A stretch of DNA of 64,000 nt from Actinomycetes bacterium (GTDB taxonomy: Bacteria > Actinomycetota > Acidimicrobiia > Acidimicrobiales > Aldehydirespiratoraceae). Position 1 is the stretch's first letter. Each line of letters starts with the position of its first letter. Below are positions 2,180-16,291 of this stretch, piece after piece. A program made the position numbers and the translations under genes. Location of the stretch: positions 3,484 to 67,483 of the forward strand of contig JAJRXC010000023.1 of NCBI GenBank assembly GCA_024276495.1. Reading direction: 5' to 3'. The notes under the pieces are model-generated. The model ran no database searches and was not told where the DNA came from. It saw only the letters and a list, made by a program, of their open reading frames with translations.

Positions 2180-2949
2180 TGGCCGCGCTGAAGGTCGGCG
2201 TCCAGATCCAGCCGCCCGACACGACCGTTGCCCACATGCGCGACACCTGGCGGGCCGCCGACGAGATGGGCGCCGACTCGATCTGGGTCTGGGACCACTT
2301 CTACCCCCTGTTCACCGATCCGAACGGCACCCACTTCGAAGGCTGGACACTGCTGTCGACCATGGCCGCCGACACCTCGCGGGCGATGCTCGGCACCCTC
2401 GTGACCGGCAACAGCTACCGCAACCCGGCGCTGCTCGCCGACATGGCCCGCACCCTCGACCACGTCAGCGACGGTCGGCTCTACCTCGGTGTCGGTTCCG
2501 GCTGGTTCGAACGCGACTACACCGAATACGGCTACGAGTTCGGCACCGCCGGAAGTCGGCTCCGCCAACTCGAGACGGATCTGGGCCGCATGAGGTCACG
2601 ACTCGCCAAACTCCATCCCGGCCCCGTCGGCCGACTCCCGATCCTGATCGGCGGCTCCGGCGAGAAGGTCACTCTCCGCCTCGTCGCCGAGCATGCCGAC
2701 GCGTGGAACACCTTCGGACCGCCCGACAACTTCGCCCGGCTCAACCGGGTGCTCGACCGCTGGTGCGAGAAGGTCGGCCGGGACCCCGGAGAGATCGAGC
2801 GGACCGTCGCCATCGAGTCCGACGACACCGACGACATCAGCCGCTATGTGGAGGCCGGCGCCGACCACGTCATCGTCATGATCGCCCAACCCTTCGACCT
2901 CGCTCCGCTGCGATCGCTGCTCGACCAACGCGACCGACTCGCCGACTGA
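2179..2949 (+). CDS. LLM-class F420-dependent oxidoreductase
   Basis: 256-aa ORF; short LLM/F420-type TIM-barrel pattern (GADSIWVWDHF, YLGVGSGW); translationally coupled to upstream LLM gene. Confidence 0.75.
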   Translation: MAALKVGVQIQPPDTTVAHMRDTWRAADEMGADSIWVWDHFYPLFTDPNGTHFEGWTLLSTMAADTSRAMLGTLVTGNSYRNPALLADMARTLDHVSDGRLYLGVGSGWFERDYTEYGYEFGTAGSRLRQLETDLGRMRSRLAKLHPGPVGRLPILIGGSGEKVTLRLVAEHADAWNTFGPPDNFARLNRVLDRWCEKVGRDPGEIERTVAIESDDTDDISRYVEAGADHVIVMIAQPFDLAPLRSLLDQRDRLAD

Positions 2950-2958
2950 GTCGGGCGG

Positions 2959-3441
2959 TCACTCGGACACGTCGAACTCTCCGACCAGAACCGACGCGGT
3001 TCCGAGGGGTGAGTCGCCCCCGGCCAGGAAGTGCTCGTAGTAGCGCCGGAATCGGCCCTGGAGATGCTCGTCGATCTGGGCCCGGGAGTAGTCGAGGGTG
3101 AAGAACGAGCCCACGCCCATCTCCTCGGCTGCGGCCTTCGCGGCATCGGCGTCGTCCACGGCCCAGACCACACCGATCAGACCCTCCCCCTTCTCGGCGA
3201 TGATCGCCTCGATGTAGCTGTCGGCCCCAACGATCGGCGCCACCAGCTCCACACCGCCGTCCCAGCTGAACAGCACGCGAACGCCGAAGCGGGCGGCTTC
3301 CTCGTCGTCGCCGTGGTGGAACGTGCACCCCAGCAGACGTTCGTAGAACGACCGCCCGGCGTCGAGATCGCGAACGGCCATCACCACCCGGTTCACTCCC
3401 CGCTGACGAGTCGCCGACTTCTCCGGTCCTGTTTCGGTCAT
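2959..3441 (-). CDS. VOC family (glyoxalase/bleomycin-resistance fold) protein
   Basis: Track ORF 2959..3528. I prefer the ATG at 3441 (MTETGPEK...), preceded by a GGGAGG RBS. VOC-like motif VNRVVMAVRDLDAGRSFYERLLG. Confidence 0.7.
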   Translation of the reverse strand: MTETGPEKSATRQRGVNRVVMAVRDLDAGRSFYERLLGCTFHHGDDEEAARFGVRVLFSWDGGVELVAPIVGADSYIEAIIAEKGEGLIGVVWAVDDADAAKAAAEEMGVGSFFTLDYSRAQIDEHLQGRFRRYYEHFLAGGDSPLGTASVLVGEFDVSE

Positions 3442-3511
3442 CTGCCCTCCCGGCACCATCGGGGTCACGGTAGTGGGATACTCAGATGAGCTCGAAACGC
3501 CGGGAGGCCTG

Positions 3512-6500
3512 ATGACGGACGCCGACACCTACCGCCTCAGCGATCGCTACCGCCGCGACGAGGGCACGGTGTTCATGACCGGCATCCAGGCTCTGGCCCG
3601 TCTCCCGATCGAGCAGCTCCGGATCGACCGTCGCAACGGCCGCTCGACCGCCGCGTTCGCGGCCGGCTACCCGGGCTCCCCACTCGGCGGCCTCGACGGG
3701 GCCTTCGCCGCGGCGGCCCGCGAGGCGGCCGACCTGCCGATCATCCTGCGGCCGTCCGTCAACGAGGAGCACGCGGCCACCGCGGTCATGGGAAGCCAAC
3801 TCGCCACGACCCGCGCCGACGCCCGCTACGACGGCGTCCTCGGCTTGTGGTACGGCAAGGCACCCGGCGTCGATCGGGCCGGCGACGCCCTTCGTCACGG
3901 CGCGTTCGCCGGCTCCGACCCCCTCGGGGGCGCGGTGGCCCTCGTCGGCGACGATCCGAACGCGAAGTCGTCGACCCTCCCGTCGACATCGGCCGGCACC
4001 CTCGCGTCGATGCACATCCCGGTGATCTACCCCGGTGATCCGGCCGAAGCGCTCGACCTCGGCCGCCATGCCATCGCGCTCAGCCGGGCCAGCGGGCTGT
4101 GGGTCAGCTTGAAGATCGTCGCCGACGTCGCCGACGGATCGGGCACGGTGACCCTCGATCCCGACCGGATCGATCCGGTGATTCCCACCATCGACGGCCG
4201 GCCCTACGCCCATCGGCCCAACGGAATGCTGGTCACCCCGTTCAGCCTCGACATCGAAAAGGAGATCATCGAGACCCGTCTTCCGCTCGCCCTCGAGTAC
4301 GCCGCGGCCAACCGTCTCAACCACACGACCATCGATCCGTCCGACGCCTGGGTCGGGTTGGTCTCCTCCGGCATCACCTATCGGGAACTTCGTGAAGGGC
4401 TGCGTCGCATCGGGCTCGAGGACGACCATGACATCGAAGCCGCCGGAATCCGCCTCTTGAAGCTGGGGATGCCCATACCGTTCAACGCCTCGACGATCCG
4501 AGACTTCGCCCGGGGCCTCGACCTCATCGTCGTCGTCGAGGAGAAGACCCCGAACGTCGAGTCCCTGCTGAAGGACGCCCTCTACAACGCGAGCCACCAT
4601 CCGACCGTCATCGGTCGGACCGACGAGCACGAACGACCACTCATCCCCGCGGCCGGCGCCCTCCACGCCGACGACATCATCCCGATGCTGCGCACGGTCC
4701 TGGCTGAGCGGCTGGGTGAACGACTCCGCCCCGATCGGCCGGCGCGCGAGAAGATCCCGCTCTCCGTGCGGCGCACGCCCTACTTCTGCTCGGGTTGCCC
4801 TCACAATCGCAGCACGGTCGTCGACGACGGCACGCTGGTCGGTGCCGGCATCGGATGCCACACGATGGTCCTGCTCGGCGGCGAGCCCCGATACGGCGAC
4901 ATCGGCGGCCTGACGTGCATGGGCAACGAGGGAACCCAGTGGATCGGGATGGCCCCGTTCGTCGAGACCGGACACATGGTCCAGAATCTCGGCGACGGCA
5001 CCTTCTTCCACTCCGGACAACTCGCCATCACCGCGGCCATCGCCGCGGGGGTCGACATCACCTACAAGCTGTTGTGGAACGGCACCGTCGCCATGACCGG
5101 CGGTCAGGACCCGACCGGCCGCATCGACATCGACCGGGTCTGCCGCCAACTCCTCGCCCAGGGAGTGGCCCGCATCATCATCACCTCCGAGGACCCGGCC
5201 CGGGCCCGGGCCCGTCGACTCCCACCCGAGGTCGAGACCTGGGATCGGCGTCGACTCGCCGATGCGCAGCGCGAGTTGGCGGCGATTCCCGGTGTCACCG
5301 TGCTGATCCACGACCAGCGCTGCGCGGCCGAGTTGCGCCGCGACCGGAAGCGGGGACGAATCGAACCGCCCCGCACCCGCACGGTCATCAACCATCGGAT
5401 TTGCGAGGGGTGCGGCGACTGTGCCGCAGTGTCGAATTGCCTCTCGGTCCAGCCCCTCGACACCGTGTTCGGCCGTAAGACCACGATCGAGCAGGACAGC
5501 TGCAACTTCGATCTGTCCTGCATGGAGGGTGACTGTCCGGCCTTCATCTCGATCACCTCACCTCGACGGCGTTGGTGGCGGCCCTCGCGGCGGGTGGACC
5601 GGCCGACACGATCAAGGCCGCCCGTCCCACAGGATCTCCCCCCGCCGGAGGCCCGCGCCGCCGACGATGTCAGCGTCCACATCACCGGAATCGGCGGGAC
5701 CGGCGTCGTCACCGTCTCCCAGATGATCGGCACCGCGGCGATGCTCGAAGGAGCCGACGTACAGGGCCTCGACCAGATCGGCCTCTCGCAGAAGGCCGGA
5801 CCGGTCGTGTCCGATGTCCGGATCGCCCACGGCGCGCGGGCCGGCAGCAGTCGGGTCGGCGCGGGAGAAGCCGATCTTCTCCTCGCCTTCGACCTGCTCG
5901 TCGCCTCCTCGTGGACGGGGCTCGATGCCACCGACCCGTCACGAACGTCGGTCGTCGGCTCACTCGACCTGACACCGCCGGGCACGAAGACCGCGCATCC
6001 CGAAACCGCGATGCCCACCACCGAGCATCTCCTCGCCCGCATCGACGAGGGCACCCGAGAGGGCGCCCGGCACTGGGCCGAGGCCGCCGCCACGTGTCAC
6101 GACCTGGTCGGTGACACCGTCGGCGCCAACATCTTCGTGGTGGGAATGGCCGTGCAGGCCGGGCTTCTGCCGGTCGAGCCCGCCTCGATCGAACGGGCGA
6201 TCGAGCTCAACGGTGTCGCGGTCGACCTGAACCGGGACGCGTTCCGATGGGGTCGATGGCAGGTGGCCGACCCTCGACGGGTCGACGCCGCCCGGGATTC
6301 CACCGCCGAGACGGCGCCGGTCGTGGCGCTCCGAGACGAGCTCCGATCTCGGGTCGAACATCTGACTGGGGCCGGTTCGCCGTTCGCCGAGACACTGACG
6401 CGTCTCACCGCGGAACTGATCGCGTTTCAAAACGATGCCCTCGCGCACTCCTACCTCGACACGTTGGAGCGCATCGCCAACGAGTCCGGCGGCTCACCCG

Positions 6501-6988
6501 AGCTGCTCGAGGAGAGCGCGGCCGGTCTCTTCAAGCTCCTCGCCTACAAGGACGAGTACGAGGTGGCCCGCCTGATGCTCGACGCCGACGGCCACTCCCC
6601 TGTCGATGCCGTCGCGCGACCCGGCGACCGGGTCGCGTGGCGCCTGCATCCCCCGCTGCTGCGAGCGCTCGGCCGGCGCGACAAGATCTCCGTTTCGATC
6701 CGGTGGCGACCGGCCATTCGCCTCCTCGCGGCGGGCAAGCGGCTCCGGGGGCGTCGGCTCGATCCGTTCGGACGGGCCACAGTCCGCCGCATCGAGCGGG
6801 CCCTTCCCGGGGAGTACGCTGCGGCGATCCTCGCCGTGCTCGCCTCGCCGGCCGAAGATCGGCTGTCGGTCGCGCTCGACGTCGCCCGCACGGCCGACCT
6901 CGTGCGCGGATACGAGGACATCAAGCTCGCGAACGTCGCCGCCTTCCGAGCGCGTCTCGCCGAGCTCTCCGGCCTCACGTCGAGCTGA
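3512..6988 (+). CDS. indolepyruvate ferredoxin oxidoreductase family protein (fused alpha/beta type)
   Basis: About 1158 aa; N-terminus YRLSDRYRRDEGTVFMTGIQALARLP typical of the fused IOR family; 4Fe-4S Cys cluster CEGCGDCAAVSNC; ATG at 3512 has GGGAGG 6 nt upstream. Confidence 0.85.
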   Translation: MTDADTYRLSDRYRRDEGTVFMTGIQALARLPIEQLRIDRRNGRSTAAFAAGYPGSPLGGLDGAFAAAAREAADLPIILRPSVNEEHAATAVMGSQLATTRADARYDGVLGLWYGKAPGVDRAGDALRHGAFAGSDPLGGAVALVGDDPNAKSSTLPSTSAGTLASMHIPVIYPGDPAEALDLGRHAIALSRASGLWVSLKIVADVADGSGTVTLDPDRIDPVIPTIDGRPYAHRPNGMLVTPFSLDIEKEIIETRLPLALEYAAANRLNHTTIDPSDAWVGLVSSGITYRELREGLRRIGLEDDHDIEAAGIRLLKLGMPIPFNASTIRDFARGLDLIVVVEEKTPNVESLLKDALYNASHHPTVIGRTDEHERPLIPAAGALHADDIIPMLRTVLAERLGERLRPDRPAREKIPLSVRRTPYFCSGCPHNRSTVVDDGTLVGAGIGCHTMVLLGGEPRYGDIGGLTCMGNEGTQWIGMAPFVETGHMVQNLGDGTFFHSGQLAITAAIAAGVDITYKLLWNGTVAMTGGQDPTGRIDIDRVCRQLLAQGVARIIITSEDPARARARRLPPEVETWDRRRLADAQRELAAIPGVTVLIHDQRCAAELRRDRKRGRIEPPRTRTVINHRICEGCGDCAAVSNCLSVQPLDTVFGRKTTIEQDSCNFDLSCMEGDCPAFISITSPRRRWWRPSRRVDRPTRSRPPVPQDLPPPEARAADDVSVHITGIGGTGVVTVSQMIGTAAMLEGADVQGLDQIGLSQKAGPVVSDVRIAHGARAGSSRVGAGEADLLLAFDLLVASSWTGLDATDPSRTSVVGSLDLTPPGTKTAHPETAMPTTEHLLARIDEGTREGARHWAEAAATCHDLVGDTVGANIFVVGMAVQAGLLPVEPASIERAIELNGVAVDLNRDAFRWGRWQVADPRRVDAARDSTAETAPVVALRDELRSRVEHLTGAGSPFAETLTRLTAELIAFQNDALAHSYLDTLERIANESGGSPELLEESAAGLFKLLAYKDEYEVARLMLDADGHSPVDAVARPGDRVAWRLHPPLLRALGRRDKISVSIRWRPAIRLLAAGKRLRGRRLDPFGRATVRRIERALPGEYAAAILAVLASPAEDRLSVALDVARTADLVRGYEDIKLANVAAFRARLAELSGLTSS

Positions 6989-7009
6989 GCATCGGCCTAC
7001 TCTGGCGCG

Positions 7010-8170
7010 ATGCGATCCGCCCCCGTCGTCGCCCAGTTGAACGACGATCTCGTCGCGCTCCACGAACAGACCCTCGAGTTCGTCGCGAAGGAGGTGACCC
7101 CCCACGGCGACGAGTGGGAGCTCGACGGGCACGTTCCCCGCGAGGTCCTGCGAAAGATGGGCTCGCTCGGGATGTTCGGGCTGCGCGCCCCTCAGGAGCG
7201 GGGCGGTCTGGGACTCGGACCGTTGGCCTCGCTGACCTTCGCCGAAGCGCTCGGCTCGTCGACCTACGCGGGCTTCGATGTCACGGTTCTCGTCCACACC
7301 GACATGGCGCTGCCCCACCTCCTCAACTCGGGAAGCGACGACCAGCTGGACCGCTACCTGCCGGAGGTGCTCGCCGGCGAACGCATCCTCTCCATCGGTG
7401 TGACCGAACCCGATGCCGGCTCCGATGTCGCCGGCATCCGGACCCGGGCCGAAAAAGACGGCGATGGCTGGCGGATCAACGGGGCGAAGCTGTTCATCAC
7501 CAACGCGGTCCACGGCGACATGACCATCATCGCCGCCCGTACCCAGCCCGATGACCGCTACGGCATCTCGATGTTCCTCGTCGAGAAGGGCACCGAGGGG
7601 TTCTCCGTCGCCAAGGCGCTCGACAAGACCGGCTGGCGATGCTCCGACACCGCGGAACTGCATCTCGACGACGTGTGGGTAAGCGACGACCAGCTGCTGG
7701 GCACCGTTCATCGCGGCTTCTACGAGACCATGCGCAACTTCCAGAACGAACGTCTCGTGCTCGTCGGCATGGGTGTCGGCGCGGCCCAGGCCGCGATCGA
7801 CTTGACCGTGTCCTACACCCGAGACCGGGCCGCCTTCGGTGGCCACCTGTTCGACCTCGGCGCCATTCGCCAGCGACTGGCCATGGCCCAGGCCCGGGTC
7901 GACGCCGCCCGGGCATCGATGTACCACTGCGCCTGGCTCGCCGAGCAGGGCACGGAGCCGGTGCGGGAAGTGTCGGGCCTCAAAGCGTGGGCATGCGAGA
8001 TGATCAACCAGGTCATGTACGAATGTGTGCAGTTCCACGGCGGCATGGGTTACATGCGCGAGACCGCGGTCGAACGAATGAGCCGGGACGCACGCATCCT
8101 GCCCATCGGCGGAGGCGCGACCGAGGTCATGCTCGAAGAGGTCGCGAAACGACTCGGTCCCGCCCGATGA
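7010..8170 (+). CDS. acyl-CoA dehydrogenase
   Basis: 386-aa ORF; ACAD architecture and motifs (TEPDAGSD, C-terminal QFHGGMGY...RDARILPIGGGATEV). Confidence 0.85.
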   Translation: MRSAPVVAQLNDDLVALHEQTLEFVAKEVTPHGDEWELDGHVPREVLRKMGSLGMFGLRAPQERGGLGLGPLASLTFAEALGSSTYAGFDVTVLVHTDMALPHLLNSGSDDQLDRYLPEVLAGERILSIGVTEPDAGSDVAGIRTRAEKDGDGWRINGAKLFITNAVHGDMTIIAARTQPDDRYGISMFLVEKGTEGFSVAKALDKTGWRCSDTAELHLDDVWVSDDQLLGTVHRGFYETMRNFQNERLVLVGMGVGAAQAAIDLTVSYTRDRAAFGGHLFDLGAIRQRLAMAQARVDAARASMYHCAWLAEQGTEPVREVSGLKAWACEMINQVMYECVQFHGGMGYMRETAVERMSRDARILPIGGGATEVMLEEVAKRLGPAR

Positions 8171-9015
8171 GCGGCCTTCCGACGCGGTTGCGGTCGCTGC
8201 TTTTCGCCCCGGCCGTTCGACCGGACCTCGTCGCCAAGACGCCCACGGCCGGTGCCGATCTGGTGGCCGTCGATCTCGAGGACGCGACCCCCGTCGTCGC
8301 GAAGTCTGCCGCCCGCGGCGAGCTGGCGGGGCTCGTCGCCTCGGTGATCGACCGGGCTGCGGTCGCCGTGCGGGTCAACGACCCGTCAACCGAATGGTTC
8401 GAGGACGACATCGGCGCGCTCCCCGACGGCCTCGCCGCGATCCTCGTCCCGAAGATCGAAACGGTCGACGGGCTCGATCACGTCCGGGCCGTTCTCGAGT
8501 CGACCGGCCGATCCGGGCTTGCGGTGATCGCCGGGCTCGAGACCGCGCTCGGTGTCGCCGACGCCCGGTCGCTGGTCTGTCACCCCGTCGTCGGGGCCGC
8601 GTACTTCGGGGCGGAGGACTTCATCGCCGACATGGGTGGCGTGCGCACGGCAACCAACCACGAAGTGGCCTTCGCCCGCAGTCAGGTGGCGCTCGCCGGG
8701 CGGCTGGCCCGGCGCCCCGTGCTCGATCAGGTCGTCGCCGACTTTCGAGACGACGACCGCTCCCGGCGGGAGAACGAGGAGGCCCGAGCGATGGGGTACG
8801 CCGGCAAGTTGTGCATCCACCCGGCTCAGGTCACGATCGCGAACGACGTGTTCACCCCGTCGGCCGATGAGATCGACCGCGCGGCTCGTCTTCTTGCCGC
8901 GTACGAGGAAGCAGCGGCCGGCGGCATCGCTGCCATCGACTTCGAGGGACAGATGGTCGACGAGCCGGTTGCCGCTCAGGCCCGCCGGCTCCTGACCCTC
9001 GCGGAGCCGCGCTGA
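8167..9015 (+). CDS. HpcH/HpaI aldolase / citrate lyase beta (CitE)-like acyl-CoA lyase
   Basis: Real start MSGLPTRLRSLLFAPA at 8167 inside track ORF 7639..9015; ATGA overlap with ACAD stop; CitE-like motifs (LFAPA..., DLVAVDLEDA, GKLCIHP). Confidence 0.8.
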   Translation: MSGLPTRLRSLLFAPAVRPDLVAKTPTAGADLVAVDLEDATPVVAKSAARGELAGLVASVIDRAAVAVRVNDPSTEWFEDDIGALPDGLAAILVPKIETVDGLDHVRAVLESTGRSGLAVIAGLETALGVADARSLVCHPVVGAAYFGAEDFIADMGGVRTATNHEVAFARSQVALAGRLARRPVLDQVVADFRDDDRSRRENEEARAMGYAGKLCIHPAQVTIANDVFTPSADEIDRAARLLAAYEEAAAGGIAAIDFEGQMVDEPVAAQARRLLTLAEPR

Positions 9016-9642: not shown

Positions 9643-10773
9643 GTGACCCCCGAACCCGAAGATCCCCTCGATGGCGCGCTCGTCGCGCTCGCCCACCCCG
9701 ATGGCGTGCACGAGGCCGATCGGGTCTTGGCGGCGTTCGGGAGCCCGCTCGAGTCTGCATTCCTCGCCGAAGTGGCACGCCACCGGCTCGAAGCCCCGCT
9801 GGTCGACGCGCTCGTGTCCGCCGGCCAACCGGTACCACCCCTGCTCGAACGCATCGTCGCCGATGATCGGCTGACGCGGCTGCGGGTGGGTGCGGTCCTG
9901 GCCCGAATCGCGCCCCGGCTCGATGCCAGTGGGATCGAGTGGCTCACGTTCAAGGGCCCGATGATCTCCTCGCTCATGAGCCGTCCGGAGCTGCGCACCT
10001 TCAACGACCTCGATCTTCTCGTCGGCCCGGACCGTTTCGCTGACGCGGTCGATCTCCTCGTCACCGCGGGCGCAGAGGAGCTCAACCACAACTGGCTGCC
10101 CTACATCCGACATCGTGTCGGTGAGGTCCCGATGGACATGCAGGGGGCCACCGTCGACCTCCACTGGCACCTCATCGGGCTCTACCACCATCGCCGGGCC
10201 TTTCGGCTCCCGGTGTCGGCCATGCTCTCGCGGCGGCGCCACCGCCGCATCGGCGATCGGGAGCTCCCGGGATTCGACGCGGAGGATCAACTCCTCCAGC
10301 TCGCCCTCCACGCCGCCATGTCGGGGGCGACCCGTCTCGATCAGCTCCGCGATCTGGCGGTGGTGGCGGCTGCGGACCCCGTCGATTGGCCCCGGTTCGA
10401 GTGCCGGGCCCGCGACGCCCGGGTCGGCGTTCTCGTCGCGCACGCGCTCGACCGGGCCGGTCGCGTGCTGGGGGCACCCGTCGACAACGATGTCGTCGAC
10501 CGCCTCGGCGGACGCCTGGTCTCGGTCCGGCGTCGCCTCGACGGCACGCGGGTGCGGGGGCTACGGGCGTTCACCGTCGTCGCCGGTCGTGACTCCGTCC
10601 CGGCGACGGTCGTCGCCACGAGTCGGCGGCTCCGCGACATCACCGCGGGAGCGCTCGGCCGTGGACGTGGTTGGGACTTCACCGACGAACGCGGGCGTCT
10701 GTTCGCCTCGCGAGCCAGCGGTGGGCCGTCGGCCCGCGCGACCTTCCTGCGGAGCCTGCCCGACTGGGCGTGA
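9643..10773 (+). CDS. nucleotidyltransferase family protein (uncharacterised NTP_transf_5-like type)
   Basis: 376-aa ORF; pol-beta-type NTase signature around LTFKGPMISSLMSRPELRTFNDLDLLVGPDRF. This family is commonly found beside PqqD / HprK-like genes. Confidence 0.7.
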   Translation: MTPEPEDPLDGALVALAHPDGVHEADRVLAAFGSPLESAFLAEVARHRLEAPLVDALVSAGQPVPPLLERIVADDRLTRLRVGAVLARIAPRLDASGIEWLTFKGPMISSLMSRPELRTFNDLDLLVGPDRFADAVDLLVTAGAEELNHNWLPYIRHRVGEVPMDMQGATVDLHWHLIGLYHHRRAFRLPVSAMLSRRRHRRIGDRELPGFDAEDQLLQLALHAAMSGATRLDQLRDLAVVAAADPVDWPRFECRARDARVGVLVAHALDRAGRVLGAPVDNDVVDRLGGRLVSVRRRLDGTRVRGLRAFTVVAGRDSVPATVVATSRRLRDITAGALGRGRGWDFTDERGRLFASRASGGPSARATFLRSLPDWA

Positions 10774-10784
10774 CCGGACGCGCA

Positions 10785-10810
10785 CATGGGAGCGGCGAAC
10801 CGCTCCCATG
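10785..10810. terminator. perfect hairpin between convergent nucleotidyltransferase gene and precursor peptide A1
   Basis: catgggagcgg-cgaa-ccgctcccatg: 11-bp stem, 4-nt loop. It lies 12 nt after the NTase stop and 20 nt after the A1 stop. No T-tract. Confidence 0.5.
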
Positions 10811-10829
10811 TCGTCGCGTCCGTTCGGGA

Positions 10830-10955
10830 TCAGTCGGGGGTCTGCTCCCACACGCGGCCGCTCCCGCGGCGGATCGGCTTCACGCCGTTCTCGCCGTGGG
10901 CGAGCGATCCCTCGAGCGAGACCTGGGCCTTGATCGCCGGCTTGCCGTACTGCAT
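10830..10955 (-). CDS. RiPP precursor peptide candidate A1 (41 aa): MQYGKPAIKAQVSLEGSLAHGENGVKPIRRGSGRVWEQTPD
   Basis: Not in the ORF track (below its size cutoff). ATG at 10955 preceded by AGGGAGA RBS, TGA at 10832-10830. Paralogous to A2 (26/36 identical N-terminal positions). Lasso-type Y-x-K-P-x-I leader motif. Confidence 0.6.
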   Translation of the reverse strand: MQYGKPAIKAQVSLEGSLAHGENGVKPIRRGSGRVWEQTPD

Positions 10956-10989
10956 CTGACTGTTCTCCCTTGTGTCGCTAACATCACTC

Positions 10990-11018
10990 AGCGTAGCCAT
11001 TCGAATACGCGAAGTAAA
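10990..11018 (-). promoter_or_regulatory. putative promoter of A1 (-35 TTTACT, 17 nt spacer, -10 TACGCT on minus strand)
   Basis: Manual match to TTGACA/TAnnnT about 35 nt upstream of the A1 ATG; equivalent arrangement upstream of A2. Confidence 0.3.
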
Positions 11019-11103
11019 GAATGGTTCGCTGCGTCGGAGAGGTGACCCGACGTCGTGAACACTACCACTCCACGTGAGGCGGGGCGGGATCCCGGACCGG
11101 AAC

Positions 11104-11139
11104 GCGAGAGTGGGAACGGCGAACCGTTCCCACTCTCGA
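11104..11139. terminator. hairpin downstream of precursor peptide A2
   Basis: cgagagtgggaacgg-cgaa..-ccgttcccactctcg: about 14-15-bp stem with the same cggcgaaccg apex as the 10785-10810 hairpin. It lies 20 nt after the A2 stop. Confidence 0.5.
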
Positions 11140-11158
11140 GCTCAATTGGCTGACGTTG

Positions 11159-11290
11159 TCAGCGCGCCAAGGTGTCGTCAAGCCAGCCGCGGCCGCTGCC
11201 ACGCCGGATCGGCTTCAGTTGGCCTTCGCCCTGCGAGAGTGAACCCTCGAGCGAAACCTGCCCCTTGATCGTCGGCTTTTCGTACTTCAT
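11159..11290 (-). CDS. RiPP precursor peptide candidate A2 (43 aa): MKYEKPTIKGQVSLEGSLSQGEGQLKPIRRGSGRGWLDDTLAR
   Basis: Not in the ORF track. ATG at 11290 preceded by GAGGAGA RBS, TGA at 11161-11159. Paralogue of A1 with its own promoter-like region and hairpin. Confidence 0.6.
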   Translation of the reverse strand: MKYEKPTIKGQVSLEGSLSQGEGQLKPIRRGSGRGWLDDTLAR

Positions 11291-11325
11291 TCCATCTCTC
11301 CTCACCAAAAGTGGTTACCCCACGA

Positions 11326-11355
11326 ACCGTAGCATTTTTCCTACGTTGCGTGCAA
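11326..11355 (-). promoter_or_regulatory. putative promoter of A2 (-35 TTGCAC, 18 nt spacer, -10 TACGGT on minus strand)
   Basis: Manual match about 36 nt upstream of the A2 ATG; mirrors the A1 arrangement. Confidence 0.3.
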
Positions 11356-11428
11356 TGGGCGCAATGACCCCGAATCGACGACCCGGGCATCCCCACGATA
11401 CCACTCCGGGTGAGACGAGTCGGTGACC

Positions 11429-11869
11429 TCACCGTCGACCGCTCGACCACACGCGACGGCGCACGGTCCGGGCGACCCGGCGAAGACGAAACGCGGCGGC
11501 GCTCCCCAGACGGTCGAGCGTTCCAAACCCTTTCACCGAGCCATCCGGGGCCACGACCGTCGTGACCCGACCGATCGCCTGCGCCAACGGCACCGGGGGG
11601 TCGTCGACGGGATTCCCCGAGCCCCGGCCGGTGACATGGTCGCCGTCCACCTCCCGCACACGGTGGACCACGATCACTCCGGCATCGTTGGTGAAGCCCC
11701 AGATCTCGCCGCGCCGGGGCGCACCCGCCCCTTCCACCACGACCGTCGAGCCCGACTCGATCACCCCGACCATGCTCGATCCGCTCACGGGCAACTCGAT
11801 CGGGCCGGACTCGAGGCGCCGTCGAAGCAGCCGGGCCGTGGCCACCGGATCCAGCGGGCTCTCTGACAT
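11429..11869 (-). CDS. S26B-type (SipW/Sec11-like, Ser/His) signal-peptidase-like protein without membrane anchor; candidate leader peptidase
   Basis: 146 aa; catalytic-Ser box VSGSSMVGVIESGSTVVVE, His box VIVVHRV, and GRGSGNPVDDPPV resembling the GDNN..D box. No hydrophobic N- or C-terminal segment. Confidence 0.65.
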   Translation of the reverse strand: MSESPLDPVATARLLRRRLESGPIELPVSGSSMVGVIESGSTVVVEGAGAPRRGEIWGFTNDAGVIVVHRVREVDGDHVTGRGSGNPVDDPPVPLAQAIGRVTTVVAPDGSVKGFGTLDRLGSAAAFRLRRVARTVRRRVWSSGRR

Positions 11870-11930
11870 TCGGCGACCGTACCGCGGCCCGATCCCCGAT
11901 TCCGAGGATCATCTGGGCTTTCATGGGCCC

Positions 11931-12866
11931 ATGGCGACGAACGACCAGCCGTGGACGGTGCAACTCGATGTGGCCGGTGTCTCGGTCGCCACCACGGCGC
12001 CGCGCCCCTACGCGCCGTGCATCCGGGGGCGCCTCGGAACCGTCGAGTCCGACGCGGCGACCGAGCTCACCCTCATCGTGCGCGAGACGGCCCCGCCACC
12101 CCCGGACCGCGCACCCGACCAGTCGATCGAGGGATTCGACGCCTGGGAGGAAGAGGGTGTGCTCTGGATCGGCCGGGGCTGCACCCACGCCCGCGTCGAG
12201 GGCGACACCGTCGAGGTCGGGGGGCCACTCGAGGGCGACGCCGACGAGGACACGCTCGACGATCTCCTCCAGTTCTCCATCGCCCAGGCACTCGCCACCC
12301 CCGGACGAATCATGATCCACGGTGCGGTGATCTCCACGGCCGACGACGCCGTCGTCGTGGTCGGCGGCAGCGGCCAGGGAAAGTCGACGCTCGCTGCCGC
12401 TGCCCTCGTCGGCGGCTGGCAGCTCCTCGGCGACGACCTGGCCCTGGTCGACACCGGCCGCTCACTCGTACGGGCGGTGCAACGGCCCCCCATGGTGCCG
12501 GCCGACATCGCCGAACGGCACGGGCTCGGCGGACAGCCGGAGGCGGGTGGGCGGGGCCGGGTCCGGCTTCCCGTCGACGTGCTCCACGCCGGGTCCCGTC
12601 GTCTGGTCGGAGTCGTCTCGGTTGCCCACGGCGACGAAGGCGGCGTGACGATCAGCGACGGTGCCGACCTCCGCACGCTCGACGCCGCGCTCGCGGTCCC
12701 GCCATTCCGGGCCGTCATCCGCCGTCATCTCGCGGCGGGCGCGGCGCTGCTCGCGAGCCCGACCGTTCGCCTCGAACACGCCCGGGACCCATCCCGCCGG
12801 ATCGAGGTCGCGATCGAGTCGATCCGGGCCGCGATCGACCTGTGTCGATCCGCCGACCGTCAGTAG
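11931..12866 (+). CDS. HPr kinase C-terminal-domain-like P-loop protein (HprK-related putative peptide kinase)
   Basis: Start MATNDQPW at 11931 inside track ORF 11562..12866; Walker A in HprK-like context IHGAVISTADDAVVVVGGSGQGKSTLAAAAL...LGDDL. Confidence 0.7.
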   Translation: MATNDQPWTVQLDVAGVSVATTAPRPYAPCIRGRLGTVESDAATELTLIVRETAPPPPDRAPDQSIEGFDAWEEEGVLWIGRGCTHARVEGDTVEVGGPLEGDADEDTLDDLLQFSIAQALATPGRIMIHGAVISTADDAVVVVGGSGQGKSTLAAAALVGGWQLLGDDLALVDTGRSLVRAVQRPPMVPADIAERHGLGGQPEAGGRGRVRLPVDVLHAGSRRLVGVVSVAHGDEGGVTISDGADLRTLDAALAVPPFRAVIRRHLAAGAALLASPTVRLEHARDPSRRIEVAIESIRAAIDLCRSADRQ

Positions 12867-13669
12867 GTCGCGAGGGTGCCCGCACGGCGGGCCTCGGTGA
12901 CCGCCCGCCGGAAGACGAGGATCGCCAGGGGCATCGCGACAACCGCGAAGCCGGCCAGGACCGCGATCTCGAAGGTGACATCGCCGAGTCCGGCGTCGCC
13001 CTGGACGAGCTGTCGCGTCGCCCGCACGCCGTAGGTCGCAGGGACGATCTTGGCGACCGCCGCGAGCCAACCGGGCAGCACCGACAACGGGTAGAGGGCA
13101 CCGGACAGCAACAACGTGAGCTGGCGGGCCGGGCCGCTGAAGGGGTCACCGCGCTTCACCAGCACGATGAAGGCGGCCGAGAAGATGCCGAGGGGAACGA
13201 ACGAGGCCGTGGTGAGCAACAGCAGCGGGATGGCCTTCAGCAGGCCACCGACGGGTATTCCCGCCCCGAAGATGCCGAGACCGACGATCACGAGCACGAT
13301 CGTCTCGGCGATGACGAAGATCGCGGGAACGATGTAGCTGGCCGCCAGAATCGTCCACATCGGCGTAGGGGTCGCGAGGATCGCCTCGAGGGTTCCCTCG
13401 TTTTGCTCCTCTCTGATCTGACCGCCGAAGGACTGCATGCCGACGATCGCGAAGCTCGTCACGATCGCCCCGATCAGGACGAACTCGAAGTATCCGCCAT
13501 CGAGCTCACGGATGCTCTCGGGATCGCCGACGAACTCCCCGATGAAATAGAACGAGATCGCGAAGTACCAGAGATTCAGGATGTTCATGATCATGTTGAT
13601 CTTGTACGACGTGAGGGTGATGAGTTCCTTCTTGCCGATCGCCCGAATCCTCCGAAGGTCCGCCCTCAT
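12860..13669 (-). CDS. ABC-2 type transporter permease
   Basis: Start MRADLRRIRAIGKKEL at 13669 (ATGA overlap with the ATPase stop); six hydrophobic segments; ABC-2 permease pattern. Confidence 0.8.
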   Translation of the reverse strand: MRADLRRIRAIGKKELITLTSYKINMIMNILNLWYFAISFYFIGEFVGDPESIRELDGGYFEFVLIGAIVTSFAIVGMQSFGGQIREEQNEGTLEAILATPTPMWTILAASYIVPAIFVIAETIVLVIVGLGIFGAGIPVGGLLKAIPLLLLTTASFVPLGIFSAAFIVLVKRGDPFSGPARQLTLLLSGALYPLSVLPGWLAAVAKIVPATYGVRATRQLVQGDAGLGDVTFEIAVLAGFAVVAMPLAILVFRRAVTEARRAGTLATY

Positions 13670-14433
13670 GAGTCCGCCTCCGCGACCAGCCGCTCCAGGT
13701 GGGCGCCCAACCCGGCGGGGTCGCCGGCGATCTCCTCGGCACTGCCCTCCCATTCGATCCGCCCGTTGATGAGCGCGAGGACCCGGTCGCACGCGATCAC
13801 GACCTCGTCGAGACGGTGGCTCGCCATGAGCACGGCACGACCGTCGGCGGCGAGCGCCCGGATCTGCTCGCAGAGCTGGCGACCGGCGATGGGGTCGAGG
13901 CTTCGGGTCGGTTCGTCGAGCACCAGGAGGCCCGGATCGTGGAGCATCGCCCGGGCGATGCCGAGTTGGGCGAGCATGCCCGACGAATAGCCGAACACCG
14001 CCTTGTCGCGCGGGGCGAGGCCCCGTTCCTCCATCGCGGCGTCGACCGCGGCCTTGGTCCGGGCCCGGTCGAGCCCGGCCAGGGCGGCGAAGTACTCGAG
14101 GTTCTGGCGCCCGGTCAGGCGCCAGTGAAACGAGCGTTCCTCGGGAAGCGACAGACCGAAGAGCGTCTTGACCTCCTCGTCGTCGGGATCCACGCGCCGC
14201 CCACCGACGAAGATCTGCCCTTCGCTCGGGACCAGCAGCGTCGTGATCGCCCGTAGCAGCGTCGATTTTCCGGCGCCGTTGGGCCCGCCGAGCCCGACCA
14301 CCTCACCTCGGTTGACCCGGAAGCTGATGTCGCTGAGGGCGCGCACCGGTTCCTTCGTGGCCGAACGAATCAGCACGCCCAACACGCCCCGCGGCGGCTG
14401 ATACGTCATCCCGACGCCGTCGACCACGAGCAT
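13666..14433 (-). CDS. ABC transporter ATP-binding protein
   Basis: Walker A GPNGAGKST, signature YSSGMLAQLG, Walker B LLVLDEPT. Confidence 0.9.
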   Translation of the reverse strand: MLVVDGVGMTYQPPRGVLGVLIRSATKEPVRALSDISFRVNRGEVVGLGGPNGAGKSTLLRAITTLLVPSEGQIFVGGRRVDPDDEEVKTLFGLSLPEERSFHWRLTGRQNLEYFAALAGLDRARTKAAVDAAMEERGLAPRDKAVFGYSSGMLAQLGIARAMLHDPGLLVLDEPTRSLDPIAGRQLCEQIRALAADGRAVLMASHRLDEVVIACDRVLALINGRIEWEGSAEEIAGDPAGLGAHLERLVAEADS

Positions 14434-14435
14434 CG

Positions 14436-14699
14436 TCAGTCCAGCTCGACGAGCTTCGACTCGAGGAGCGACTCCACGAACGTGATGATGTCGGCTTCCA
14501 GCTCCTCGACGGAAACACCGTCGAACCGTGCCACGAGGTCCTTCGCCAGCGCGGCCGCGTCACGCCGACCATCGAGCTCCTGCCAGATCGCGGCGCCGAC
14601 CGGGTTGAGGGTGGTCATCACCGTGCCGTCGGCATCGAGAATCACCACCGTGTCTCCACTCGGTTCGAAAGAGACGCCGTCGCGTCGTCGAATCGCCAT
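14436..14699 (-). CDS. PqqD family protein (RiPP recognition element)
   Basis: 87 aa; PqqD pattern (LNPVGAAIWQELDGRRDAAALAKDLVARF...E.DI..F...L); 2-nt gap to the ABC ATPase start. Confidence 0.8.
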   Translation of the reverse strand: MAIRRRDGVSFEPSGDTVVILDADGTVMTTLNPVGAAIWQELDGRRDAAALAKDLVARFDGVSVEELEADIITFVESLLESKLVELD

Positions 14700-14779: not shown

Positions 14780-16291
14780 TCAGACACGGATCTTCGACAT
14801 CGAGTCGTCGAGACCACCCGGCCGGCTGCTGGACAACCACCCCGTCCGCATCGCCTCGACGACCGGGGCGATCTCCGCGGGCTCGGGGACGAGGGCCGGG
14901 CGGCCGTCGAGGTCGAGGCGATGCGCGGCACACAACCGTCGGAGACCGAGATGGGCCAACCGACAAGCCGCCTCCATCTCCCGCGCGACGATCGCTCCTC
15001 TCGGTCCTCCGACCGGGCCCGATCCGAACAGCTCGATCGCGTCGAGCAGCGAGCGATGGGCGGCATCGAAGGCATCGACGTCGGGGGTGCCGAATGTCGG
15101 GGCGGTGCCGGTCGTCATCGCGGCGTGCAGCGGCGACCCGTTCGGGCTGGACAGTCCGAGCGACTCGCCGATCCGCCCCAGTCGATCGATCAGGCTGCCG
15201 GTGCCGGGGTCGAACCCGGCGATCTCGTCGATCGTCGCGGCGACGGCGTCGGCGTTGGGGACTTCACCGGTACGGGCCGCGAGCCCTGCTCTCACGATCG
15301 ACGGGAGGGAGACGGCGAGGGGCTGCCAATGTCCGTTGTCGCCCCAGTCGGTGAGGAGAATCCCGGGACACCTCTGGGCCTGTCCGACCGCGACCGCGTC
15401 AGCGATGTTCGCGGTGGCGTTTGTGTTGCGACCGATGATCGAGTTCCACGTCGAGGTGCCCGGCGCGACCCAAAACGGAGTCCCGGACTCGATGAACAGT
15501 CGGGCATGGGCGCTGAACCCCTCGGACGCGTCGGGGGGAAGTCCGAGCCGCTCCGTCTGGGCGGGGGTGAGGTGATCCATCCAGCCCTCGACGCCGGGAG
15601 CTTCGTAGTTCCAGACGACCGCGACTGCCCCGTCGGGTATCTGCTCGATCAACGACGCGTCCCGGCGGAACAGGTCGGCCCAGAACATCACCTCGTGTCC
15701 GTCGCCGACCAGAGGCTCGATGATGCGCCGAAGATGGTCGAGATACACATGGTCGCGGCCTCGGCGTGCGACATCGGCGGCCGACGCGCCATCGCCGAGC
15801 TCGAAGGGTTCGTCGGCACCGATGTGGATCCGGTGATGACGAATCACCGATGCCATCTCACGGGCGAGCGCCACCGCGAAGCGAGCGTTCGCCGGGATGG
15901 GGGCAAGGCATCCCGGTGGGGTGAGCGAGCCGTCGAACGGGCTGACGTAGCCGAGTGGGCACTCGGCCATCGTCCGGTACTCGTCGTGCTCGAGCCAGCG
16001 GGCCATGTGCCCGAAGCCGTTCATGTTGGCCACGAGGTCGAGGCCGACCGACGCGCACCGGTCGTCGAGCCATCGGAGGTCGTCGTGGGTGAGCGGCGAG
16101 GCGCACCTCCAGACCGTCTCGTGTCCCCGATAGGTGAACGTGTGCTCGACGTACAGCTGCAACTCGTTGAACCCGGCCGCGGCAAGGACATCGGCGAGCC
16201 ATTCGAGGGTGGCGCGCGTCGGCACCCGGTCTCGGCTCACGTCGAGCATGAATGCCCGCCGCGACAGGCCGATCCCGTTGTTCCGGCTCAT
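14780..16291 (-). CDS. glycoside hydrolase family 20-like (beta-N-acetylhexosaminidase-like) protein
   Basis: 503 aa; FMLDVSRD and catalytic-type IHIGADEPFELG motif. Confidence 0.7.
   Translation of the reverse strand: MSRNNGIGLSRRAFMLDVSRDRVPTRATLEWLADVLAAAGFNELQLYVEHTFTYRGHETVWRCASPLTHDDLRWLDDRCASVGLDLVANMNGFGHMARWLEHDEYRTMAECPLGYVSPFDGSLTPPGCLAPIPANARFAVALAREMASVIRHHRIHIGADEPFELGDGASAADVARRGRDHVYLDHLRRIIEPLVGDGHEVMFWADLFRRDASLIEQIPDGAVAVVWNYEAPGVEGWMDHLTPAQTERLGLPPDASEGFSAHARLFIESGTPFWVAPGTSTWNSIIGRNTNATANIADAVAVGQAQRCPGILLTDWGDNGHWQPLAVSLPSIVRAGLAARTGEVPNADAVAATIDEIAGFDPGTGSLIDRLGRIGESLGLSSPNGSPLHAAMTTGTAPTFGTPDVDAFDAAHRSLLDAIELFGSGPVGGPRGAIVAREMEAACRLAHLGLRRLCAAHRLDLDGRPALVPEPAEIAPVVEAMRTGWLSSSRPGGLDDSMSKIRV

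Follow-up and report, generated by a model that had tools for sequence, protein, structure and literature searches.

Tandem small genes of a Microthrix-like Acidimicrobiia bacterium are probable precursor genes of an LPP-type RiPP cluster

Results

Two small minus-strand genes, here called A1 and A2, lie close together in a stretch of 64,000 nucleotides of contig JAJRXC010000023.1 (the window). Together with their neighbours they probably represent tandemly duplicated precursor genes of an LPP-type RiPP cluster in a Microthrix-like Acidimicrobiia bacterium, a reading made by analogy and known here from sequence alone. LPPs, or Linear Polyphosphorylated Peptides, were first described in 2026 (Popov et al., Nat Commun 2026; PMC13381572). 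Their model cluster is lppA-K-B-S-D-N of Paenibacillus alginolyticus, and their core set comprises a signal peptidase I-like protein (SpI; TIGR02228), a PqqD protein, an HprK-like kinase, an NTP_transf_5 protein (the domain table of that paper equates 'putative NTP transferase' with NTP_transf_5), a transporter, and one to three small precursors with a YxxPx[V] leader (PMC13381572). The same paper states that LPPs are restricted to Bacillota (PMC13381572).

A1 runs from 10955 to 10830 on the minus strand (10830..10955) and encodes 41 amino acids plus a stop, with the leader MQYGKPAIKAQVSLEGSL and the core AHGENGVKPIRRGSGRVWEQTPD, where we infer that the boundary between the two lies after L18. 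A2 runs from 11290 to 11159 on the same strand (11159..11290) and encodes 43 amino acids plus a stop, with the leader MKYEKPTIKGQVSLEGSL and the core SQGEGQLKPIRRGSGRGWLDDTLAR. Both translations are exactly those of the original prediction, which had also described the two peptides as paralogues that are identical at 26 of 36 positions and free of Cys; the identity was recovered in full (72%, tblastn E 2e-14), and neither peptide contains a Cys residue. At the DNA level the two coding sequences form a direct repeat with 78% identity and a spacing of 335 bp, and the pair is a tandem duplication of about 335 bp, of which tblastn found no third copy in the 64-kb window. Third codon positions have a GC fraction of 0.95 in A1 and 0.80 in A2, values typical for genes of this window with 68% GC, and the substitution rates between the two genes are 0.18 for dN and 0.62 for dS. 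Longer versions of both reading frames have been listed, namely 56 amino acids from an ATG at 11000 for A1 and 49 amino acids from a TTG at 11308 for A2. We favour the shorter starts proposed originally because they give the conserved N-terminus M-[QK]-Y-x-K-P and are preceded by a ribosome binding site. The genes had been called unannotated, which is correct relative to the list of open reading frames, but the exact A1 and A2 sequences are already present in a public protein collection as gene calls of an NCBI assembly. These public entries carry no family and no name, the sole label seen being 'hypothetical protein'. Genes of this peptide family are sometimes mis-merged or missed by gene callers.

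Searches that included a full HMMER scan and a profile search recovered 17 in-frame homologues of A1 and A2, all on contigs of Microthrix-like Acidimicrobiia. A word-indexed protein search with A1 alone as the query matched only A1 itself, and a contig scan of genomes with both peptides gave one locus, in a Ca. Microthrix MAG. Metagenome contigs scanned with the peptide profile gave no match, and a metagenome scan with the HprK alignment gave 80 loci that are all distant P-loop relatives, none of which (0/80) has a peptide homologue. The number of peptide copies varies between loci, with three in L003 and two in L096. The reading frames are preserved in all 17 homologues, and the indels between them are whole codons only. 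Differences in the leader are distributed over the three codon positions as 66/32/95, with a median leader dN/dS of 0.26; the loci are too diverged for the peptide region to be aligned by blastn. The in-frame homologues, the dN/dS values and the third-position bias agree with the earlier proposal of paralogous small coding genes, and A1 and A2 are real, conserved coding genes.

The proposed pattern of a conserved leader with variable ends also extends to the family, the N-terminal 18 residues being kept across the 17 homologues while the C-termini vary in length and sequence. Conservation stops exactly at L18. Within the leader consensus YxKPxIxxx[VLI]xLxGxL, Y3 and P6 never vary, and each of the 17 members has I or V as residue 8. 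In the block QVSLEGSL, taken from A1 and A2 as conserved, S17 is not kept in the more distant members, which have LEGEL, LEGRL, LAGEL or LVGEL. The cores are 13-30 residues long and mostly Arg-rich, often almost pure Arg, and they share an R-G-S motif at a variable distance. In this motif R-G itself is invariant and is followed by Ser in 16 of the 17 cores. The Ser of R-G-S is the C-terminal residue in L097, and the most divergent member, L013, has no RGS and ends in Ser; in paeninodin-type systems the modification target is a C-terminal Ser.

Each of the two genes appears to have its own expression signals. The RBS-like sequences that had been noted before both genes are found by direct reading, AGGGAGA for A1 (10970 to 10964, minus strand) at 8 nt before the ATG and GAGGAGA for A2 (11303 to 11297, minus strand) at 6 nt before the ATG. 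Promoter-like elements of similar geometry lie further upstream on the minus strand, with TTTACT, 17 nt and TACGCT for A1 (10990..11018) and TTGCAC, 18 nt and TACGGT for A2 (11326..11355), the −10 motif ending 35 nt before the ATG in both cases. In an alignment this promoter-like motif is kept 5′ of the peptide genes in L003, L004, L011 and L015. A promoter and terminator scan of the region, with an E. coli promoter consensus, flagged nothing, so that promoter function is suggested by the conservation across loci. Hairpins that are probably terminators follow both genes on the minus strand. The one 3′ of A1 (10771..10825; −42.3 kcal/mol, z −7.2) centres on an uninterrupted, fully paired 12-bp stem that closes a 4-nt loop (10784-10811), and the one 3′ of A2 (11100..11143) has 20-nt arms and a 4-nt loop (−36.7 kcal/mol, z −6.6). 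Comparable hairpins are found 3′ of homologues at other loci.

The peptide genes belong to a six-gene cassette that consists of an NTP_transf_5 gene, the peptide gene(s), and genes that encode an SpI-like protein, a kinase resembling HprK, the two parts of an ABC-2 exporter and a PqqD-type RRE. The link of the peptides to PqqD and HprK-like neighbours, proposed from the window, proved to be strict synteny in the window and at L002/L005, L011, L013, L015, L096 and L097; what had gone unrecognised was the adjacent SpI-like gene as that of the probable leader peptidase, the lack of lasso enzymes and the correspondence with LPP clusters. The flanks of the cassette differ between loci and are unrelated, the cassette itself being constant. 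HMM and six-frame scans found no other conserved small open reading frame within the cassette. We rejected as a cluster member the 503-aa GH20-like gene that adjoins the PqqD gene, since none of the other cassettes has it. Polysaccharide genes adjoin the cassette at some loci, and L014 is a variant of the cassette that contains a JmjC gene.

The NTP_transf_5 gene (9643..10773, plus strand) is convergent with A1 and encodes a protein of 376 aa with a nucleotidyltransferase fold, matching PF14907 with 112.5 bits, the Pfam family that also contains LppN of the LPP clusters. Directly upstream of A2 and on the same strand lies the gene of the SpI-like protein (11429..11869, minus strand; 146 aa), which resembles signal peptidase I of the archaeal/SipW type. 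By eye no hydrophobic N-terminal anchor is visible in this protein, which is of the soluble type. Its Pfam Peptidase_S24 score of 23.0 bits is just under the cut-off of 23.3 (28.0 for the homologue in L004), and TIGR02228 is matched by 6/6 SpI-like homologues (best E 2.6e-9), the window protein scoring 31.7 bits against a curated cut-off of 51.85. The protein is related to LppS by BLASTP (E 7e-10, 29% identity over 90 aa) and by hhalign (probability 96.2%). Its residues S32, H69 and D90 do not vary among the homologues, and their counterparts in the alignment with LppS are S29, H68 and D93, which were shown to be essential (PMC13381572). The SpI-like family profile had no significant match among PDB sequences, and a single-sequence structure model of the protein was unusable (pLDDT 36.6). 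We regard the SpI-like protein as the probable leader peptidase of A1 and A2.

The HprK-like P-loop kinase (11931..12866, plus strand; 311 aa) has the Walker A sequence GGSGQGKST and is the best-conserved enzyme of the cassette, its P-loop being intact and invariant. Its best NCBIfam match is TIGR04352 (E 1.6e-14), followed by weaker scores to PF07475 (E 5e-4) and TIGR04249 (ScmC; E 0.004), and PF27840 is precomputed for P0016. The AF2 model of the kinase (pLDDT 91.6) has Foldseek matches of the PEPCK/HPr-kinase fold; at the level of sequence, neither the kinase nor the NTP_transf_5 protein gave a useful match in the PDB. A 434-aa open reading frame from 11562 was rejected as the kinase gene, the extension being artefactual and antisense to the conserved SpI-like gene. 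The exporter is encoded on the minus strand by a DrrB-like ABC-2 type permease gene (12860..13669; 269 aa; PF01061, E 7e-18) and a DrrA-like ATPase gene (13666..14433; PF00005; TIGR01188, E 2e-46). The discrete PqqD-type RRE (14436..14699, minus strand; 87 aa) scores 63.7 bits against PF05402, of which the cut-off is 23.4, and has weak sequence matches to the PqqD structure 3g2b and the lasso/LPP RRE structures 9x90 and 9x8z.

Compared with the published LPP clusters, the cassette has the same kinds of genes, namely a cluster-encoded SpI-like peptidase with Ser, His and Asp that is homologous to LppS, a discrete PqqD RRE, a kinase resembling HprK, an NTP_transf_5 protein and an ABC exporter. 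Like the LPP clusters, it lacks a macrolactam cyclase and a B2 protease, as far as the window and the examined flanks show. The precursors are likewise one to three small peptides per cluster with an N-terminal Y-x-x-P-x-[V/I] leader and variable C-termini, and the Tyr is 16 residues from the end of the conserved block in both. The differences are also clear. The host belongs to Actinomycetota (Acidimicrobiia) rather than Bacillota; the exporter is a two-gene ABC-2/DrrAB system, whereas that of the LPP clusters is an MsbA-like protein with fused TMD and NBD (TIGR02203); and instead of one operon there are several units that diverge or converge. The leader YxKPxIxxx[VLI]xLxGxL stands against YxxPxVLxHQxIxFET, of which the VLxHQ and FET positions are unmatched. 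The serine modified in LPPs is core residue 3, within a conserved FET|xxS (PMC13381572), while here a conserved Ser3 is missing and R-G-S is found instead at a variable distance. BLASTP detects no similarity between the RRE and LppB, to which the RRE is not detectably nearer than to other RREs, so that the same gene set may conceivably have been assembled independently.

Three other comparisons are relevant. The phosphorylated lasso clusters (paeninodin, pseudomycoidin and Bsf, with genes A, B1, B2, C, D, K and N) share with the cassette a YxxPxL-type leader, a PqqD B1-like RRE, an HprK-like kinase that acts on a precursor Ser, an NTP_transf_5 'N' gene and an ABC exporter; in Bsf, precursor phosphorylation is stimulated by the RRE. 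In contrast to them, the cassette lacks an Asn-synthase-like cyclase and the Cys-protease B2, which a serine peptidase replaces, and its cores lack the conserved ring-forming Asp/Glu. An actinobacterial homologue of the SpI-like protein, WP_093411367.1 of Micromonospora (Verrucosispora) sediminis, is RRE-linked and appears in Supplementary Data 1 of PMC13381572 as an entry that is listed and not analysed. Over 100 aa it shares 42% identity with the window protein (E 9e-15), and the RRE beside it has weak similarity to PqqD of the window (E 1e-4), but it has 245 aa with an extra C-terminal region and falls outside the SSN cluster studied in that paper. Finally, the 'HPr-rel-A system' (TIGR04352 kinase A and TIGR04353 PqqD_rel_X) and SynChlorMet (ScmC/ScmD) also combine a kinase of the HprK-like type with a chaperone of the PqqD family, but the scores here are far under the curated cut-offs (53.7 against 200 and 14.3 against 35 bits), and radical-SAM genes are absent here.

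Discussion

By analogy with the Paenibacillus lpp system, the PqqD protein would bind the leader through Y3, P6 and I8, a proposal based on the spacing of Y-x-x-P-x-[V/I], which equals that of Y-16, P-13 and V-11 of LppA. The RRE would then hand the peptide to the HprK-like kinase for phosphorylation, possibly more than once, of a serine in the core, with the Ser of the near-invariant R-G-S as the best candidate target. The NTP_transf_5 protein may attach a further group onto the phosphate. The SpI-like peptidase with its Ser, His and Asp would cut off the 18-residue leader, cleavage after L18 being proposed because the distance from Tyr to the cleavage site of LppA is kept and because conservation ends at L18, and the ABC-2 pump would export a short, linear, mostly Arg-rich phosphopeptide. 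Points that count against an LPP-type reading are the absence of the LPP Ser3 motif, the lack of the R-G-S Ser in L013, the scores of the SpI-like protein under the cut-offs, the lack of BLASTP similarity between the RRE and LppB, the undetectable activity of LppN even in the published system, and the different exporter.

We considered whether A1 and A2 are genuine lasso precursors, with the genes of the cyclase (C) and the leader protease (B2) lying in another part of the genome. All 17 peptides have the Y and P of the lasso-type leader motif (YxxPxL, bound by PqqD-type B1), with I or V in its last position. The kinase, the NTP_transf_5 protein and PqqD correspond to the accessory set of paeninodin/Bsf-type clusters, and the hydrophobic residue near the end of the leader resembles the Ile/Val(-2) class. 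However, whichever plausible cleavage register is chosen, the family alignment has no conserved Asp/Glu at core position 7-9, and several cores, for example RHRRPPRRRGSGR of L011 and GRRRRRRRRRGRRGS of L097, are devoid of acidic residues. Moreover, neither PF00733 (Asn_synthase) nor PF13471 (Transglut_core3) was matched by the genes of the cluster or by most of the remaining large open reading frames of the window that were covered, nor among the genes called in the examined flanks of related cassettes at 6 other loci, and a dedicated alternative peptidase is present in every cassette. A lasso product is therefore very unlikely. That the open reading frames are spurious, and that an RNA element or promoter/terminator DNA was conserved instead, is barely credible even though strong hairpins flank them and chance open reading frames are frequent in high-GC genomes. 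Third-position substitutions dominate, dN/dS is about 0.26-0.29, frame and start are kept in 17/17 homologues despite divergence of the DNA past blastn detection, the other two frames have stops or are unconserved, and the hairpins lie outside the coding part. The alternative of a conserved RNA structure, which the original prediction had itself raised, was also checked against Rfam, with no match near the gathering score for the region.

It is improbable as well that A1 and A2 are real small proteins that are not substrates of their neighbours, for instance a regulatory protein, a peptide that confers immunity or some secreted peptide of another kind travelling with the cassette. The interaction between RRE and leader is deduced from the motif alone, which leaves some room for this explanation, but a cassette with a discrete RRE requires a peptide substrate, and the scans for small open reading frames offered no other. 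In addition, the RRE-binding motif of the peptides has the spacing seen in LppA, and a conserved leader, a variable core and multiple copies are the typical architecture of precursors. A further explanation accepts the precursors and proposes an end product that differs from an LPP, such as one made by direct nucleotidylylation or glycosylation by the NTP_transf_5 protein, or by the kinase acting on another residue. The missing Ser3 motif would fit such a product, as would the polysaccharide genes beside some loci and the fact that no activity of LppN was detectable in the published system (PMC13381572), the model system itself. Against it, the kinase with its intact P-loop is the enzyme that has been conserved best, and the near-invariant R-G-S provides an obvious hydroxyl target; on balance we consider a different product unlikely.

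The LPP-type reading thus remains the probable one, and most likely this type of pathway has been found in a bacterial group from which the LPP pathway was previously unreported. More tentatively, and with somewhat more doubt than belief, we suggest an Acidimicrobiia-specific LPP branch in which the kinase would target not Ser3 but the R-G-S Ser, at a distance from the cleavage site and within a polyarginine-like core; the products could then be small polycationic (poly)phospho- or phosphoglycosyl-peptides of filamentous, Microthrix-like bacteria that live in activated sludge. In that case LPP-type chemistry would extend beyond Bacillota, and the RRE, the kinase and the NTP_transf_5 protein would form a portable platform that, to judge from the JmjC-containing variant L014, has been joined at least twice to different peptidases or tailoring enzymes. 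The motif M-x-Y-x-K-P-x-[IV]-x3-[VLI]-x-L-x-G-x-L ... R-G-S makes precursors of this family searchable, and the SipW-type peptidases may be presumed to act as RiPP leader peptidases outside Bacilli as well. With much shorter and simpler precursors, whose cores of 13-30 residues offer a single obvious Ser target, the complete and conserved LPP-type cassette of Acidimicrobiia would provide a further system, simpler in its chemistry and remote in phylogeny from the first, for working out the product of the kinase and the NTP_transf_5 protein.

Two tandem genes encode members of a conserved peptide family

The original prediction placed two paralogous small peptide genes on the minus strand, A1 (10955->10830, stop codon included; product MQYGKPAIKAQVSLEGSLAHGENGVKPIRRGSGRVWEQTPD) and A2 (11290->11159; product MKYEKPTIKGQVSLEGSLSQGEGQLKPIRRGSGRGWLDDTLAR), and both translations were recovered exactly from the minus strand of 10600-11500. 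The claimed identity of 26 of 36 positions was reproduced by tblastn, which found no third copy elsewhere in the 64-kb window. The ribosome binding site-like sequences are likewise present, AGGGAGA 8 nt before the ATG of A1 and GAGGAGA 6 nt before that of A2, and the GC3 values (0.95 for A1, 0.80 for A2) resemble those of the surrounding real genes in a window with 68% G+C. The genes had been described as unannotated, which holds for the ORF track then consulted but not for public data, since both exact products occur in a public protein collection as unnamed gene calls from an NCBI assembly.

A1 and A2 form a tandem duplication with a period of ~335 bp, in which a motif upstream and a hairpin downstream are repeated together with the coding part (78% DNA identity). 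The hairpins following A1 and A2 are highly stable, with fold energies of −42.3 and −36.7 kcal/mol (z-scores −7.2 and −6.6, respectively). Several loci share a promoter-like motif (TTGCAC, 17-18 nt, TAC..T) ~35 nt before the start codons of the peptide genes; the corresponding minus-strand elements at 10990-11018 (A1) and 11326-11355 (A2) were assigned from cross-locus conservation only, and a consensus promoter scan was negative. A second duplicated motif, GGAGTGGTA, precedes each of the two genes by ~115 nt (11063-11087 and 11399-11423, minus strand).

A profile built from A1 and A2 retrieved three more peptides when HMMER was run over all 1.84 billion representatives, and a profile search of a 5.8-billion protein collection added further homologues. 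Six-frame HMM scans of the fetched loci revealed additional members overlooked or merged by gene prediction, bringing the alignment to 17 distinct members. Residues M1, Y3, K5, P6, L14, G16, R30 and G31 are invariant, L18 and S32 are nearly so, and position 8 is I or V in every member. Past residue 18 the sequences vary in length and composition, yet nearly all contain R-G-S, frequently inside Arg runs. Three precursor copies are present in L003, a short contig with a partial copy of the surrounding gene cassette, and two in the related locus L096. Those of L003 lie consecutively on the plus strand (154-252, 488-589 and 873-992), each followed by a hairpin GGGAGCGG...CCGCTCCC that closely resembles the one 3' of A1; in the public call, the middle precursor has been fused into a 178-aa ORF (322-858).

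The possibility that the region represents an RNA element or spurious ORFs was rejected because an Rfam scan of the peptide region yielded no family near its threshold, and because the differences between 12 leader-coding sequences are biased towards third positions (66/32/95 by codon position) with a median dN/dS of 0.26. For A1 versus A2, dN is 0.18 and dS 0.62. The peptide genes are thus coding and under purifying selection. The loci are strongly diverged, to the point that in a blastn comparison of the window with a Ca. Microthrix MAG, only parts of the enzyme genes align and the peptide region does not.

The peptide genes are part of a recurrent cassette

Pfam and NCBIfam scans of the window assigned, in order, an NTP_transf_5 gene (9643-10773, +), A1 (10830-10955, −), A2 (11159-11290, −), a 146-aa signal-peptidase-I-like (SpI-like) protein (11429-11869, −), an HprK-like kinase (11931-12866, +), an ABC-2 permease (12860-13669, −), a DrrA-like ATPase (13666-14433, −) and PqqD (14436-14699, −). 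This six-gene cassette, with the peptide gene(s) at the same place, recurs among entirely different flanking genes in the Ca. Microthrix MAG (L002/L005), an Acidimicrobiales MAG (L011), L013, L015, L096 and L097, and partially on the short contigs L003 and L004. The GH20-like 503-aa gene beside PqqD (14780-16291) falls outside the conserved set. A search of the cluster genes and most other large window ORFs detected neither an Asn-synthase-like cyclase nor a transglutaminase-like B2 protease, and the called genes in the examined flanks of related cassettes likewise gave no hit to these lasso enzymes.

Two related cassettes adjoin polysaccharide genes, namely Glycos_transf_2 (twice) and Wzy_C in L096 (8952-12266), and Glyco_tran_28_C, three methyltransferases and an epimerase in L013 (4230-9121). 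A more distant cassette, L014 (assembly GCA_038316365.1; kinase 35% identical), encodes within 1777-8294 PqqD, an HprK-like kinase and NTP_transf_5, along with a fused ABC exporter and two proteins of the JmjC_2 type, and tblastn detected no SpI-like gene there. Two small minus-strand ORFs of L014 (6574-6672 and 6724-6903) share a leader-like motif, YEAPAVEDxTSVxEPLN, unlike that of the window family, and L014 is possibly another RiPP variant on the same platform. Prophage or phage-remnant DNA at the far end of the window is suggested by a portal protein of the SPP1 phage type (59601-60971, −; PF05133, E 1.5e-29); two large ORFs nearby (48672-50909 and 52937-55057) had no Pfam match.

The SpI-like protein and the HprK-like kinase

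A plus-strand 434-aa ORF (11562-12866) was dismissed as the kinase, being an artefactual 5' extension that runs antisense through the SpI-like gene. Comparison with L002 and L004 showed that the conserved frame in the overlap is that of the minus-strand 146-aa protein; the public kinase call is the 311-aa version, and the true start is 11931. The exact 146-aa product is absent from the public protein collection, so the source annotation may lack this gene or call it wrongly. The P-loop of the kinase is intact, and the confident structure model of the enzyme (pLDDT 91.6) matches the PEPCK/HPr-kinase fold.

All six SpI-like homologues match TIGR02228 (NCBIfam, archaeal-type signal peptidase I; best E 2.6e-9), and some also match SipW. 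For Peptidase_S24 (Pfam), the window protein scores 23.0 bits against a threshold of 23.3, and the L004 homologue 28.0. Invariant residues include S32 (G-x-S-M), H69 (V-H-R) and D89/D90; no hydrophobic N-terminal anchor was visible when the sequence was read by eye. Judged by alignment, the protein is homologous to LppS, the peptidase of the Paenibacillus LPP system (E 7e-10; hhalign probability 96%; LppS sequence from PMC13381572 Supplementary Data 1), with an intact catalytic triad, as S32, H69 and D90 align on LppS S29, H68 and D93. An RRE-linked SpI from Micromonospora (same Supplementary Data 1) is closer than LppS (42% identity, E 9e-15). A conserved G-R-G-[ST]-G-N segment (GRGSGN, residues 81-86) resembles the R-G-S-G-R of the peptide cores (RRGSGR), which is probably coincidental because the aligned counterpart of the segment in LppS is the G-D-T-N box.

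Relationship to linear polyphosphorylated peptides

Clusters for Linear Polyphosphorylated Peptides (LPPs; Popov et al., Nat Commun 2026, PMC13381572) encode the SipW-like SpI peptidase LppS, a discrete RRE (LppB), the HprK-like kinase LppK, the NTP_transf_5 protein LppN, an MsbA-like pump and precursors 35-200 aa in length, one to three per cluster, with the motif YxxPxVLxHQxIxFETxxS. In that system LppK adds up to four phosphates to core Ser3, leader removal after T-1 is carried out by LppS (catalytic S29, H68, D93) and requires LppB, and LppN has no detectable effect; in the crystal structure, LppB holds leader residues Y-16, P-13 and V-11 (PMC13381572). Its authors also noted linkage to capsular polysaccharide loci, regard the final product and its role as unknown, and call LPPs restricted to Bacillota (PMC13381572).

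By analogy, PqqD would bind leader residues Y3, P6 and I8, and the HprK-like kinase would phosphorylate a core Ser. The best candidate is the R-G-S serine, present in 16 of the 17 members; in L097 it is the last residue, and L013, which lacks it, has a Ser at its own C-terminus. Leader cleavage by the SpI-like enzyme would follow L18; numbering Y3 as −16, as in LppA, puts L18 at −1, exactly where family conservation ends. Alternatively, cleavage might follow the L-E-G block, which resembles the F-E-T of LPPs. Export of the product would fall to the ABC-2 pump.

The window family shares the lasso/LPP-type Y-x-x-P-x-[I/V] motif, but its leader consensus otherwise differs from that of LPPs; its cores are short, mostly Arg-rich and lack a conserved Ser at position 3. 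Moreover, the RRE has no detectable similarity to LppB, the exporter is a two-gene ABC-2 system rather than MsbA-like, and the host, judged by the loci nearest to the window, belongs to Actinomycetota (Acidimicrobiia) rather than Bacillota. From these sequence comparisons, the cassette appears to be a variant of the LPP-type system, and the differences make it compatible with either common descent or independent assembly.
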